Part shown: in pieces, positions 11,991 to 58,937 of the stretch
How the letters are laid out: each line of letters opens with the position of its first letter
Position numbering within the stretch: the stretch's first letter is position 1
NCBI GenBank assembly: GCA_038998335.1
Contig: JAVZHQ010000001.1
Coordinates: 64,001-128,000, forward strand
Length of the DNA: 64,000 bases
Direction: 5' to 3'
DNA from: Candidatus Aenigmatarchaeota archaeon
GTDB lineage: Archaea > Aenigmatarchaeota > Aenigmatarchaeia > CG10238-14 > SCSR01
The notes under the pieces: generated by a model
Told to the model about the DNA's origin: nothing
The model's input: the letters and a program-made list of their open reading frames with translations, nothing else
Databases searched by the model: none
Program-made: the position numbers and the translations under genes

Positions 11991-12083
11991 TGGGGACGCT
12001 GGGATTTGAACCCAGGTTTTCTCGTGCAAAGCACTCTGAGCCTCCCAAGGGCCCGATCCTAGACCAAGCTAGACGACGTCCCC
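11991..12083 (-). tRNA. tRNA-Pro(UGG) with 22-nt variable region, probable 18-nt non-canonical intron
   Basis: GGGGACG/CGTCCCC acceptor, GGGCC-CTTGGGA-GGCTC anticodon arm, CTGGG-TTCAAAT-CCCAG T arm; no encoded CCA. Confidence 0.93.
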
Positions 12084-31330: not shown

Positions 31331-32428
31331 TTATGTGATATAATTTAAATCTAACTTTTTTGCATAATTCGCAACTTCTTTAAACTCTTCTTGAGTAATA
31401 CTTCTATTTATATCAATCTGTTCAAGAGCCTTAAACTCTGGCCTGTATTGGTCCATTATATTAACAATACACCTATCCTTAATGTTTTTTGCAATCCATT
31501 CCAATACTGGCTTGCTACAGCACTCAACATGATTGGGTAAAATTAAATGCCTAACAGTTAGTTCAGCTTGATTAGAAGCTATCAAATGATTTCTTGAAAC
31601 TATCTCAAAATAATTTTTTACTTTTGAAAGTCTAAGAGCACATTCATCATTTCCGTACTTAAAATCTGGCAAGTAAAGATCAACAATTCCTTCAAGAATT
31701 TTCATAGTCTTTTCGCTCATATAAAAGTTAGAGTTCCAAACTACTGGAATATTAGCATTGCAATATTTTAAGCTTTCAAGAATTGTTAAAAGATTAGGTG
31801 TAGGCTCACCACCAACAAAATTAACGTTTCTACAACCTTGTTCTCTTCTTTTTTCCATGATTCTTGCTAGTTCCTTTGGAGTAATTAAATAACCTTCTTC
31901 AAACCATTGACTTATAGTCCAATTCTGACAATACTGACAATGAAAGTTGCAGCCCATGAAGAAAACTGTATGGCTTGGAGTAATGTGGGCTTCTTCTCCG
32001 AGGTGAATATTTTCAGAAGATATTAATGCTTCTTTCCCAACTTTACACTCGCCTTTTTCTCCTTTAAGCCTGTTAACCTTACATTTTCTCTCGCATAGTT
32101 CGCAAGCTTCCATTATTTCTCTTGTAAGTATAATTTTTAAGTCAATTAAAGAATAGCGAGGGACTTCAAGTTCATTTAACTTCATTTTTTTCTTCTCACA
32201 TACTTCTTTAATTTCATAAAATTTTTTCATAAGTTGAGAATGAGTTTCCCAGAGCTCTTCAGAGCTTAAGCTTTTTTGGAAATCAAAAACAATTCTTCTG
32301 GCTATTTGAAAATTTGCCCAAGCTTGATTTTCAACAGCTTTAACATACCTTGGTAAAATTTTTTTAATTATAGGATTTTCTAAGGCCCTTGCTGAGTCAG
32401 GTCTTATGAGGTAAAAATAACTAACCAT
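31331..32428 (-). CDS. Radical SAM protein, PflX-like
   Basis: CELCERKCKVNR, HLGEE, CNFHCQYCQN, GGEPTP. Confidence 0.88.
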   Translation of the reverse strand: MVSYFYLIRPDSARALENPIIKKILPRYVKAVENQAWANFQIARRIVFDFQKSLSSEELWETHSQLMKKFYEIKEVCEKKKMKLNELEVPRYSLIDLKIILTREIMEACELCERKCKVNRLKGEKGECKVGKEALISSENIHLGEEAHITPSHTVFFMGCNFHCQYCQNWTISQWFEEGYLITPKELARIMEKRREQGCRNVNFVGGEPTPNLLTILESLKYCNANIPVVWNSNFYMSEKTMKILEGIVDLYLPDFKYGNDECALRLSKVKNYFEIVSRNHLIASNQAELTVRHLILPNHVECCSKPVLEWIAKNIKDRCIVNIMDQYRPEFKALEQIDINRSITQEEFKEVANYAKKLDLNYIT

Positions 32429-55285: not shown

Positions 55286-55495
55286 ATGGCAGTAGTCAAA
55301 GTTATTGAAGTTATAGGAAGTTCTGAAAAAAGCTGGGAAGATGCGGTTCAAAACGCTTTAAAAAGAGCGAGCAAAACAGTAAGGAATATAACAGGAATAG
55401 ATGTTTTGGGTTTTAAAGCTGTTGTTAAGGACAATAAAATAGCAGAATACAGAGCCCACATGAAAATTGCTTTTGTAGTTGAGGAGCCTGAATGA
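55286..55495 (+). CDS. Dodecin
   Basis: KVIEVIGSSEKSWEDAVQNA...ASKTVRNI. Confidence 0.92.
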   Translation: MAVVKVIEVIGSSEKSWEDAVQNALKRASKTVRNITGIDVLGFKAVVKDNKIAEYRAHMKIAFVVEEPE

Positions 55496-55728
55496 ACAAG
55501 CAAAAAATACTAGAGATTGTAAGAAAGTGGAAGATAAGCAAAAAACCTGAGTACAGAAGTTTTAGATGTGCTAAGTGTCAAAGAGTAATAAGAAAAGCTT
55601 GGCATGTTTGGTTAGAAAATAAAGGGTTTAAAATAGAGGTTCATTTTTGCAAGAAATGTTTTAAGAATAGGAATAAGTTTTTTAATTTTTATCTTCAGCG
55701 ATACTTGTTTTTACCAGACAAGCATTAG
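55492..55728 (+). CDS. Small zinc-finger protein
   Basis: CAKC...HFCKKC. Confidence 0.6.
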   Translation: MNKQKILEIVRKWKISKKPEYRSFRCAKCQRVIRKAWHVWLENKGFKIEVHFCKKCFKNRNKFFNFYLQRYLFLPDKH

Positions 55729-55764: not shown

Positions 55765-56604
55765 ATGAAATTTAATCAAAGCTTAGCGACTATTCACGCA
55801 TACTTATGCGCAGATGGTTATGTAATAACCAATCCACCTACTCAAAAGCATAAATATTATTATATTGGTTTAAGAAATACGAACGAAATAATTTTACAAG
55901 ATTTTCAAAAGAATTTTGAAAGGGCATTTGGAATAAAACCAATAATTACAAAAGAAAAAGATAGATGCAAAATTCAAAATAAAAATTTATTTTTAAAACT
56001 CACAAAAAACTTTTCATTTTACTCAGATAAGTGGACCATGCCAAAGCTTTCATTAAAAGGATTAAGGTGTTGGTTGAGAGCTTTTTTCGACTGTGAAGCA
56101 TGGGTTAATGTTCAGAAAGGTAAAAGTAGAGTAATAGGATTAGAATCTGTTAACAAAAATGGCCTGGAACAAATTAGAAATTCTTTGCTTAAATTTGGGA
56201 TTAAGGTATCTAATGTAAAAAAAAGGAAGAATAGGAATATTTGGTATATTTACATTTGTGGTAAGGAAAATCTTCTAAAATTCAAAGAAAATATTGGATT
56301 TTTACACCCAAATAAAAACAAAAAACTCTTAGAAGCTATTAATTCATATATAAATTACGAATGGTTGATACCAAGTGAAAGAGAAGAATTTATCAAATTT
56401 GTGAATGATAAAGGGAAGTTAAGAAATGATACAAAAGAAGTTAGATTCTTTTCAATCATCAAAGATAATTTAATAAGATTAAAAGAAGAGTTAATAAAGT
56501 ATGGTATTGATGCAAGGATGTATGGTCCCTGGAAAAATAATAGGGGAAGAATTTATTATTGTTTATCTTTTAAGCAAAAAGAATTAATTAAATTAAGGAG
56601 GTGA
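55765..56604 (+). CDS. Free-standing LAGLIDADG (DOD) endonuclease-like protein
   Basis: IHAYLCADG and WLRAFFDCEA, IGFLHPNK; no Hint motifs; stop overlaps rtcB start (GTGA). Confidence 0.85.
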   Translation: MKFNQSLATIHAYLCADGYVITNPPTQKHKYYYIGLRNTNEIILQDFQKNFERAFGIKPIITKEKDRCKIQNKNLFLKLTKNFSFYSDKWTMPKLSLKGLRCWLRAFFDCEAWVNVQKGKSRVIGLESVNKNGLEQIRNSLLKFGIKVSNVKKRKNRNIWYIYICGKENLLKFKENIGFLHPNKNKKLLEAINSYINYEWLIPSEREEFIKFVNDKGKLRNDTKEVRFFSIIKDNLIRLKEELIKYGIDARMYGPWKNNRGRIYYCLSFKQKELIKLRR

Positions 56605-58076
56605 GAAAGATAAGGCTTAAAGAAAGGTTAAGAAAAATTGGCCCTTGTCTATGGGAATTACCAAGGGAAACAAAGCCGGGAATGAAAGTACCAGCATGGC
56701 TTTTCTTGTCAGAAAAGCTTTTAAGTCAAGTAGAAGAGGGAGCGATAGAGCAGGCAGCCAATGTAGCTTTCTTACCAGGAATTTACAAGCATAGTATAGC
56801 ACTCCCTGATATGCATTTCGGCTATAGCTTATAAAGCGGCTAAGGATTTCCTATCGGGGGGGTTGCAGCTTTAGATTATAAAGAAGGCGGCTTAAGTCCA
56901 GGAGGTATAGGCTTTGATATCAATTGTGGCGTAAGACTTTTGCGTACAAACCTAACATTAGAGCAAGTAAAACCAAAACTTAAGGAATTGCTAGAATCAA
57001 TTTTCCATAACGTTCCTTCTGGTGTTGGCGAAGTTGGAAAAATTAAGCTAAGCTTTTCTGAGCTAGATGAAGTTTTAGTCAATGGAGCAAGATGGGCCGT
57101 TGAAAAAGGTTACGGAACCGAAAAGGATTTGGAGCACTTGGAAGAGCAGGGTTGCATGAAAGGTGCAAACCCAGAAAAAGTTTCTAACGAAGCAAAAAAG
57201 AGAGGAGCTCCTCAGCTTGGTACTCTAGGAGCAGGAAATCATTTTCTTGAAATTCAAATTGTGAATAAAATATTTTTACCAGAAGTTGCGAAAGTTTTTG
57301 GAATAGAAAAGGAAAATCAGATTTGCGTGATGATCCATACCGGAAGTCGTGGATTTGGTCATCAAGTTTGTACTGATTATTTAAGAATTTTGGAATCTAG
57401 GTTTAGAGATGAGCTAAGAAAATTACCTGACCGCGAGCTAGTTTATGCTCCTGCTGGAACTCAAGAATGTGAAGATTATTTTTCTGCAATGGTTTGTGCT
57501 GCAAACTATGCTTGGACTAATAGGCAAATGATTGCTCATTGGGTAAGGGAAAGTTTTGTAAAAGTTTTAGGAATGAAATTGGAAGATATAGGCTTGGAAA
57601 CAGTTTATGATGTGGCTCATAACATAGGGAAAATAGAAGAGCATGAAATAGACGGAAAAAAAGTTAAGGTTTATGTTCATAGAAAAGGTGCTACAAGAGC
57701 ATTTCCTCCTGGGCATCCAGAAATCCCAAGAGATCATCAAAAAGTAGGGCAATGCGTACTTATTCCAGCTAGCATGGCTACCCCTAGCTTCGTTTTAGTT
57801 GGAGCAGAAACCGCAAAAGAAACATTTTACTCTACTGCCCATGGCTCCGGGCGTGTAGAGTCCAGAACAAAAGCACTTAAGCAGATTAGAGGCGAAGAAG
57901 TCTTAAGACAATTGCAACAAAAAGGTATACTAGCTAAGGCCGCCAGCATGAAAGTTCTCGCTGAAGAGAGGCCAGAAGCTTATAAGCTATCGACAGAAGT
58001 TGTAAAAGCAACAGAAGAAGCAGGCATAAGTAAGCGTGTAGTAGAATTGTGGCCTTTAGCTGTGATGAAGGGTTAA
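56601..58076 (+). CDS. rtcB: tRNA-splicing ligase RtcB, join(56601..56825,56844..58076), 485 aa
   Basis: Spliced frame reads PDMHFGY|GFPIGGVAA...DINCGVR...GNHFLE...HTGSRG...VAHN...HRKGATR...AHGSGR; SD GGAGG before GTG. Confidence 0.93.
56826..56843 (+). other. 18-nt BHB intron in rtcB mRNA
   Basis: AGCTTATAAAGCGGCTAA; GGCT/GGCT 4-bp central helix, ATA and AAG bulges, GCTT/AAGC inner stem. Confidence 0.85.
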
Positions 58077-58245: not shown

Positions 58246-58524
58246 ATGCTCTCTCAAATACCTTTTGAACTTGAGAAAATAAAGAAAGAAGACTTGGAAA
58301 AAGAAATAGCAAGAGTTGGGATGATAGCAGAGCTAGATGCTATAAATTTATACGAGCAACTAGCAGCTGTTTGTGAAGATCAAAAAATGAAGAAAGTCTT
58401 GCTGGATATAGCAAAAGAAGAGAAAACTCATCTCGGCGAGTTTCAAGCCTTGCTTTTAGAAAAAGATGAAGAGCAACAAGAAGAATTGAAAAAAGGAAAA
58501 GAGGAAGTTGAAGAGTTAAGCTAA
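58246..58524 (+). CDS. Ferritin-like protein (encapsulin-cargo/rubrerythrin-like)
   Basis: AELDAINLYEQ, IAKEEKTHLGEF. Confidence 0.85.
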   Translation: MLSQIPFELEKIKKEDLEKEIARVGMIAELDAINLYEQLAAVCEDQKMKKVLLDIAKEEKTHLGEFQALLLEKDEEQQEELKKGKEEVEELS

Positions 58525-58937
58525 ATGTCAAGAATAACTTTTGCTTTCCAAACTTTATTTTTTTTAATTTTTAGCTGGTGATAGGTACAAGCTTTAACGT
58601 GCGTTCTAGTTTCATGCTTATTCTTATCTATGGTTTCGCCTTTGCAAATAGCTTCTAGCTTAAATTTTTTCTCATTAACTTTTACCGAAAATTCAGAAAA
58701 AGCTAAGTTTTCCGAATCAACAAAAACTAGCAAATAATTTAGCCAGTTAAACATTAAAGATTCTAAGTCTGAACCTTCGACCTCAACTTTTCTTTCAATT
58801 TTTGTTTCTATTTGCTTAGTGTTAACCATTACTTCAAACATTGCTAAGGCTGCATTTTCAAACAACTCGTTCAAATCTTTACCATAAGCTTCAAAGGCTA
58901 TGTCTGCTGTTGTTATGTCCAAAAACTTAAACTTCAT
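58521..58937 (-). CDS. Archease (RtcB activator)
   Basis: TADIAFEAYG...LFENAALAM...VKACTYHQL...ILDI. Confidence 0.93.
   Translation of the reverse strand: MKFKFLDITTADIAFEAYGKDLNELFENAALAMFEVMVNTKQIETKIERKVEVEGSDLESLMFNWLNYLLVFVDSENLAFSEFSVKVNEKKFKLEAICKGETIDKNKHETRTHVKACTYHQLKIKKNKVWKAKVILDI

Follow-up and report, generated by a model that had tools for sequence, protein, structure and literature searches.

How can an archaeon make the tRNA ligase RtcB from a gene whose frame is broken by two stop codons inside an invariant motif? The question is raised by the window analysed here, a stretch of 64,000 nucleotides from a Candidatus Aenigmatarchaeota archaeon (assembly GCA_038998335.1, contig JAVZHQ010000001.1, positions 64,001 to 128,000 of the forward strand). 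A first-pass annotation of the same DNA had read an 18-nucleotide (nt) insert in its rtcB gene as a tRNA-type intron of the bulge-helix-bulge (BHB) form, and had proposed that splicing of the rtcB mRNA by the tRNA splicing endonuclease EndA and existing RtcB closes a feedback loop. With a probability of roughly 0.88, the insert is a canonical archaeal BHB intron within the coding sequence of the sole rtcB found in the genome, and we infer that it is actually cleaved and ligated in vivo. Comparative data speak strongly for the structural part of this reading: related genes carry inserts of various lengths at the same site, with stems that covary, the exon codons are constrained, the gene is a single copy under purifying selection, and EndA and archease are both present. 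As to its role, the intron most likely entered a highly conserved DNA site as a selfish or neutral insertion that is tolerated there, and does not act as a regulator.

The genome holding the window (G000; 1.0 Mb, nine contigs, 90% complete) is of an Aenigmatarchaeota-like lineage (DPANN), and the sequencing runs that contain the sequence are hot-spring metagenomes. Related Aenigmatarchaeota-like genomes are designated G001 and so on. A search of 61 of them with the Pfam RtcB profile found rtcB in 57, and the N-terminal rtcB regions of these relatives were read for micro-inserts.

An 18-nt insert in an otherwise intact rtcB

The features of the gene, all on the plus strand, are as follows.

56601..56825, + strand: rtcB exon 1, 75 codons, ending in PDMHFGY
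56826..56843, + strand: predicted BHB (hBHBh') intron, 18 nt, AGCTTATAAAGCGGCTAA, with two in-frame TAA codons; the unique protein-restoring deletion
56844..58076, + strand: rtcB exon 2, 410 codons plus the TAA stop (58074-58076), starting with GFPIGG
56818..56846, + strand: full BHB motif, with outer helix h UC/GA, central helix H GGCU/GGCU, bulges AUA and AAG, inner stem h' GCUU/AAGC and loop AUA

The insert and its two stops lie exactly where the first-pass annotation had placed them, between TAT (56823-56825) and GGA (56844-56846). The gene probably starts at the GTG at 56601, which overlaps the stop of the upstream gene by GTGA. Read unspliced from there, the frame runs ...PDMHFGYSL-stop-SG-stop-GFPIGG..., and the open reading frame (ORF) at 56601-56834 yields only the 77-amino acid (aa) fragment already predicted. 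Spliced translation gives a stop-free RtcB of 485 aa, also as proposed, in which DINC, GNHF, HTGSRG, AHN, and HGSGR are all kept. Both sides of the insert match RtcB: positions 1-26 of Pfam RtcB (PF01139) correspond to residues 51-76 of the 5' frame and positions 55-426 fall on the long 3' frame, while tblastn of an intact same-genus RtcB covers query residues 1-75 on exon 1. In the whole-genome profile search, which read through the two TAA codons, the match extends over PF01139 positions 1-426 (E 7.9e-165), that is, a full-length RtcB.

The gene is under purifying selection. The dN/dS ratio of the spliced rtcB is 0.10 against intronless G001 and 0.08 against intronless G024, compared with 0.07 between G001 and G024 themselves. 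For G035, whose intron is identical, the ratio is 0.146 (289 codons). No second rtcB was found in this 90%-complete genome, which answers one of the checks named in the annotation. A second, very divergent rtcB was seen on another contig of the relative G020 (locus L041, G020:C44), at the end of a branch of length 1.12 in the RtcB tree; it may be a paralog or lie on a foreign contig, as that genome is listed with 4% contamination.

Fit of the insert to the BHB definition

The canonical BHB motif consists of a 4-bp central helix with two 3-nt bulges on opposite strands, and in its hBHBh' form both h and h' hold at least two Watson-Crick pairs, according to PMC7714728. The insert and its borders agree with this definition. 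The central helix H pairs GGCU at 56820-56823 with GGCU at 56838-56841 (G-U, G-C, C-G, U-G), and is flanked by the bulges AUA (56824-56826) and AAG (56842-56844). The outer helix h is formed by C56819-G56845 and U56818-A56846, and the inner stem h' by GCUU/AAGC (G-C, C-G, U-A, U-A), closed by the AUA loop.

Every deletion of 8-60 nt that begins in the motif region was enumerated and scored for restoring PDMHFGYGFPIGG. Exactly one does so, and it runs from just behind the second nucleotide of one bulge to the same point in the other. This is the cut position of EndA and agrees with the canonical tRNA 37/38 geometry. The BHB anatomy and the predicted cut of the first-pass annotation, which removes exactly 56826-56843, thus match the sole motif-restoring deletion. 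As to chance, a strict BHB (H 4/4, h of at least 2 and h' of at least 3 pairs) occurs at 32,358 of ~1.2e8 position pairs in G000, and random sampling of (i,j) pairs gave 2.6e-4. The minimum free energy structure of the 55- and 91-nt contexts includes H and h', but draws the 3' bulge with 2 nt and the outer stem with 3 bp.

Covarying micro-inserts in related rtcB genes

Although most rtcB copies of the relatives are uninterrupted, including that of the same-genus G001, micro-inserts were found in 10 genomes, at four sites of the rtcB N-terminus (a slash marks the insertion point):

Site A, PDGH/xGYG, 6 nt upstream of site B: G027 (32 nt) and G034 (32 nt), read by eye, each with one G.A in H
Site B, the site in the window, GY/GF: G000, G035, and G004 (identical 18 nt), G012 (29 nt), G009 (20 nt), G020 (16 nt), and G042 (26 nt)
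Site C, GG[IV]G/FD: G004 (19 nt), G020 (13 nt), and G042 (18 nt; BHB by eye, unscored)
Site D, FDI/NCG: G005 (22 nt) and G034 (31 nt)

In all seven site-B genes, which came from the unbiased profile search, the single protein-restoring deletion coincides with the BHB geometry; H is fully paired in six of them and contains one G.A in G009. The same geometry is found at the restoring deletions of the scored site-C and site-D inserts. The 18-nt insert of the window recurs letter for letter in G035, G004, and the metagenome contig L098, and the same or related inserts are present in nine species genomes and 10 metagenome contigs. The annotation had suggested looking in related rtcB genes for same-site insertions with covarying BHB motifs, and the 12 distinct variants now known at site B are of this kind: they are 16-32 nt long and keep H and the bulges, while h' covaries.

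Two scans over collections of species genomes and metagenomes used a pattern anchored in exon and H letters, with h' unconstrained. They gave 29 matches. Seventeen restore the rtcB motif, and all of these have an h' of 3-11 bp; the remaining 12 lie outside rtcB, are due to chance, and have an h' of 0-2 bp. Since the pattern leaves h' free, the matches outside rtcB are a clean internal control. Compensatory stem variants include GCUU/AAGC, GCCU/AGGC, GCCACUU/AAGUGGC, and AUAUUGAAAAU/AUUUUCAAUGU. When six distinct variants are aligned, pair 1 of h' is G-C, A-U, or G-U and pair 3 is U-A, C-G, or A-U, so that two pairs have changed on both sides; 94.9% of cells are paired in the proposed structure, whereas sliding the partners lowers this to 19-55%, and the observed score is attained by 3 of 500 shuffles. 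Judged from these alignments, structure and not sequence is conserved among the homologous inserts. The exon side is constrained as well: the F-G-Y codons are TTCGGCTAT in 7/7 profile-found intron-bearing genes and in 1/30 intronless loci (35 loci were given, of which 30 matched the motif expression).

Predicted course of splicing and the machinery at hand

We propose the following course of events. In the pre-mRNA, the exon GGCU (codons Gly-Tyr) would pair with the GGCU at the 3' end of the intron, and the resulting fold would present the two 3-nt bulges between a 2-bp exon helix and a 4-bp intron hairpin. An alpha-type EndA would then cut each bulge behind its second nucleotide. Pre-existing RtcB, with the neighboring archease, would join the 2',3'-cyclic-phosphate and 5'-OH ends, and the 18-nt intron would be released. 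The product would be an mRNA for the 485-aa RtcB with an intact GYGFPIGG and the predicted junction ...TTCGGCTAT/GGATTTCCT....

The proteins needed for this are encoded in G000. There is one EndA, which is alpha-type, 188 aa long, and has N and catalytic domains (PF02778, PF01974). Archease, a known activator of RtcB, is encoded next to rtcB:

58521..58937, - strand: archease gene, Pfam Archease PF01951, E 2.5e-46

This gene is convergent with and downstream of rtcB, and the two are syntenic in many relatives. As only one rtcB was found in the genome, new RtcB would very probably be made only where RtcB already exists.

An aragorn intron search of G000 gave 16 tRNAs with predicted introns of 10-200 nt, only three of which show a strict BHB no more than 4 nt from the predicted borders; the others may be mispredicted or have relaxed motifs. 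Several of the tRNA introns, among them C1 405024-405132, 785187-785307, and 569471-569588, end in ...AAGAUGA... or ...AUGAUGA... immediately upstream of the BHB helix's 3' half. This shared end string resembles the C-box of the C/D-box guide RNAs that archaeal tRNA introns can host. Within the window, the tRNA-Pro(UGG) at 11991-12083 (- strand) is 93 nt long, compared with 75 nt for the neighboring tRNA-Pro(GGG), and may hold a non-canonical intron that the default scan does not flag.

Two runs carry a metatranscriptomic label but are flagged as probably DNA; one of their contigs leaves the window at 56825 and rejoins it at 56968, with 124 letters between (142 minus 18). We rejected it as a spliced RNA and take it to be an intronless relative. 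A screen for other mRNA introns, in which strict BHBs fusing two frames of at least 70 codons were sought throughout G000, gave 294 matches with the true cut rule and 278-310 with ten decoy shifts; because gene boundaries dominate, this fusion screen cannot discriminate such introns.

Weighing the BHB intron against other explanations of the insert

Several observations weigh against the BHB intron. The folding energy does not differ significantly from that of shuffled sequence (z of -0.12, +0.30, and -0.57 for the 35-, 55-, and 91-nt contexts). The outer helix h has just 2 bp before U.U mismatches follow, G-U pairs stand at both ends of H, and H contains one G.A pair in three relatives (G009, G027, and G034). 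Enzymes of the alpha4 type are described as strict for the canonical BHB (PMC5829648), so a G.A pair or very short stems may make some variants poor substrates. Furthermore, the scanned pattern itself fixes H and parts of h, and among the sequences that it found only the h' stems count as independent evidence. Finally, none of the runs found to contain the sequence is recorded as RNA; the two labelled metatranscriptomic and flagged as probably DNA carry the unspliced form in a relative.

The window comes from a metagenome-assembled genome, where an assembly or sequencing artefact would be a natural suspicion, and the annotation had named this check. It is scarcely credible here: a 3153-nt Logan contig of the best-matching run is identical to the window over 56400-56975, insert included, the site is spanned gap-free in relatives by contigs of two further studies (one with T>C at 56832, in the loop), and same or related inserts recur in the nine species genomes and 10 metagenome contigs described above. 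The insert could also have killed the gene, leaving a pseudogene or a decaying copy, as its two in-frame TAA codons and an unspliced frame of just 77 aa might suggest. This is very improbable for the sole rtcB found in a genome that has tRNA introns, since its 485 codons show no further lesion, dN/dS is 0.08-0.15, and micro-inserts occur in this region in nine more relatives whose genes are otherwise intact; the argument of the first-pass annotation against decay is borne out by the same ratios, the lack of other lesions, and the single copy. We also considered a split protein, and rejected it: the first in-frame start after the stops is the TTG at 56940, and a protein starting there would lose GFPIGG and DINC.

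Alternatively, the ribosome itself might deal with the insert, by programmed bypassing or by reading through the TAA codons. In phage T4 gene 60, a stop follows soon after the take-off codon and the gap contains a hairpin, while matching take-off and landing codons define bypassing. The rtcB insert resembles this case in having a stop soon after the last conserved codon and a hairpin in the gap, but its take-off and landing codons do not match: the gap follows TAT, whereas GGA is preceded by TAA, CAA, or AAA. Read-through would add six residues inside the invariant GYGFPIGG motif, and the rtcB gene uses TAA as its own stop. For the relatives' inserts of 16, 17, 20, 26, 29, and 32 nt it is impossible, because these lengths are not multiples of 3, and read-through is thereby excluded. 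A ribosomal solution is on these grounds even less probable than a dead gene, and splicing of a BHB intron is the reading that we retain.

Regulator or passenger?

If the insert is a BHB intron, does it serve the cell? The first-pass annotation had proposed that splicing of the rtcB mRNA by EndA and RtcB tunes RtcB synthesis to the splicing capacity of the cell. One part of this proposal stands, in that the dependence of RtcB on itself is logically real where a sole rtcB is found. The adaptive coupling is not supported. In its favor, the archease gene adjoins rtcB, and the intron is identical between G000 and G035 at 18/18 positions while synonymous sites differ (pS 0.27); this identity is also explicable by recent transfer. 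Against it, the same-genus G001 and G005 lack the site-B intron, as do most of the 57 rtcB-bearing genomes, and its presence and absence are patchy on the RtcB tree. Introns at four sites together with inteins in one conserved region form the pattern of selfish elements, and a positive self-dependence would presumably amplify changes in ligase supply and not buffer them, which is no basis for homeostasis. We therefore regard an adaptive regulator as unlikely. A selfish or neutral element fits better because close relatives are intronless, the intron-bearing genes are scattered on the tree, a recombination tract surrounds the intron, and a homing-endonuclease gene adjoins it.

The scatter and the tract are seen in the following data. 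The six placeable site-B rows of the RtcB tree are dispersed, each beside intronless rows. In G035, where the intron lies at nt 225, nt 90-270 of rtcB show 96-97% identity to G000 compared with 86-89% to G001, whereas nt 630-810 show 97% identity to G001 compared with 86-87% to G000. By these identities, the G035 rtcB is a mosaic with an apparent recombination tract around the intron. The identical 18-nt intron of G004 is flanked by exons that are only ~78-82% identical. The RtcB tree also conflicts with the genome taxonomy: family f5 rows (G054 and G048) fall among the genus-level relatives of G000, and G035 (g11) stands beside G001 (g1). This suggests that rtcB has been frequently transferred or recombined among these archaea. 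In addition, the rtcB genes of six relatives contain inteins, namely, G025 (L058), G029 (L057), G042 (L039), G046 (L059), G054 (L056), and G058. They sit at two points only a few codons away from the introns, near GFP/IGG and at DIN/C, in open frames of 770-1472 aa. The first 105 codons of rtcB are thus a hot spot for intervening elements at both the RNA and the protein level.

A homing-endonuclease-like gene upstream of rtcB

How might such an intron move? The gene directly upstream of rtcB offers a candidate:

55765..56604, + strand: free-standing LAGLIDADG homing-endonuclease-like gene, 279 aa, two LAGLIDADG-type motifs, Pfam LAGLIDADG_3 E 8e-24

Its stop overlaps the rtcB start, and in comparison with the same-genus G001 and G005 it is an insertion of ~840 nt between orf78 and rtcB. 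Close homologs (E<=1e-20) occur at four places only in the 61 genomes, in G000, G009, G031, and G012. Those of G000 and G009 are intact and upstream of rtcB, and both genomes are intron-bearing. The G031 copy has eight stops and is upstream of an intronless rtcB, and the G012 copy is on another contig. A 25-aa remnant of the LAGLIDADG tail abuts the rtcB of the intron-bearing G020. With this query, the gene was not found in G035, G004, G042, or the genome of L069, and beside rtcB none was seen in the five other intron-bearing species genomes; a sequence comparison of the protein with solved structures gave no match at E<=0.01. The ORF that precedes the endonuclease gene (78 aa, window 55492-55728, + strand) has a CxxC...CxxC arrangement and no Pfam match, and is conserved beside rtcB in G001 and G005. 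A second, distant LAGLIDADG match (G000:C1:132742-133029) lies ~4.7 kb past the end of the window in a 1009-aa open frame, and is probably an intein in another gene.

It is possible that the upstream LAGLIDADG protein cuts intronless rtcB at the GY/GF site, that repair from the donor copies the intron and sometimes the endonuclease gene, and that the intron shields its own genome by splitting the target. Such collaborative homing, a concept defined in the literature (PMC3984707), would extend the BHB-intron explanation and does not compete with it. It would be consistent with the ~840-nt insertion next to rtcB, the few close homologs and their location, mostly upstream of rtcB, the remnant in G020, the scatter of intron-bearing genes among intronless neighbors, the G035 mosaic and the identical intron within the divergent exons of G004, and the nearby inteins of six relatives, which mark the region as a target of homing elements. 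Nevertheless, of the nine species genomes that carry the site-B intron only two have an intact endonuclease gene, the specificity of the enzyme for its target is presumed, no solved structure is related to it by sequence, and the mosaic may come from ordinary recombination; the sample is also small and its genomes are mutually related. We put homing forward tentatively, as less likely than not. In its general form, which we hold with the same reserve, ORF-less BHB micro-introns in the protein genes of DPANN archaea would be mobile DNA that homes in trans, by means of a free-standing LAGLIDADG endonuclease, at the DNA encoding the RtcB active site, creating an obligatory and heritable self-dependence of RtcB. 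Were this so, no mechanism for the mobility of tiny archaeal mRNA BHB introns would have been proposed earlier, and the collaborative homing known from group I introns would have a counterpart in archaea.

Implications and comparison with known systems

The retained reading, a BHB intron in rtcB, would extend mRNA splicing by the tRNA machinery to a DPANN lineage and to the gene for the pathway's own ligase, and the production of RtcB would then depend on inherited RtcB. The four intron sites and the inteins of one region provide a natural series for studying the gain and loss of BHB introns and the role of homing endonucleases, and the variants of 16-32 nt are natural minimal substrates for alpha-type EndA. 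From a practical perspective, gene callers will call such rtcB genes broken or split, and metabolic reconstructions of small archaeal genomes will wrongly score the tRNA ligase as missing. The first-pass annotation knew of no intron in rtcB, and a full-text literature search likewise found no description of one.

Among the closest known systems is cbf5, the pre-mRNA of which reportedly contains a BHB intron in Crenarchaeota (Watanabe et al. 2002). This pseudouridine synthase gene resembles rtcB in several respects: a short BHB intron lies in a protein gene, its removal restores a conserved protein, its presence and absence are lineage-specific, and the host gene belongs to the RNA-processing machinery. 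There are also differences. The rtcB intron is found in a DPANN, Aenigmatarchaeota-like host with one EndA, of the alpha type, while heteromeric endonucleases are associated with the hosts of the cbf5 intron, and rtcB encodes the ligase of the same splicing pathway, has several insertion sites, and is adjacent to a homing-endonuclease gene. Splicing of cbf5 was demonstrated experimentally, while that of rtcB is predicted from sequence. According to Yokobori et al. 2009 (PMC2738675), archaeal pre-mRNA splicing was confirmed only for cbf5. According to PMC7714728, the cbf5 mRNA intron is the only one reported besides a 5'-untranslated region (UTR) case in Haloferax. In that case, the HVO_1309 mRNA of Haloferax volcanii, an mRNA is likewise a substrate of the tRNA splicing endonuclease; its intron lies in the 5' UTR, leaves the frame uninterrupted, and has in vivo and in vitro support, whereas the rtcB intron lies within the coding frame (PMC7714728).

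Similarities are also found outside the archaea. In HAC1/XBP1 of eukaryotes, cleavage of an mRNA by an endonuclease followed by ligation, of the RtcB type for XBP1 (PMC4282640), changes the protein, but there IRE1 does the cutting, at a motif other than a BHB and under stress control, and the mRNA that is spliced does not encode the ligase. Phage collaborative homing shares with the rtcB locus an ORF-less intron at a conserved site, a neighboring free-standing endonuclease gene, a patchy distribution, and a conversion-like tract; the phage group I introns self-splice, however, whereas the BHB intron of rtcB would be spliced by proteins in an archaeal host, and the target of its endonuclease is presumed (PMC3984707). 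Closer to the locus itself, the rtcB inteins are selfish elements of the same conserved N-terminal region, near GFPIGG and DIN/C, but they span hundreds of codons and are excised from the protein. Archaeal rRNA BHB introns encode LAGLIDADG endonucleases, such as I-DmoI, the gene of which lies inside a long intron. The rtcB locus shares with them the association of a BHB intron with a LAGLIDADG protein; unlike the I-DmoI type, its intron is only 18 nt long, and the endonuclease gene lies outside it, upstream of a protein gene.

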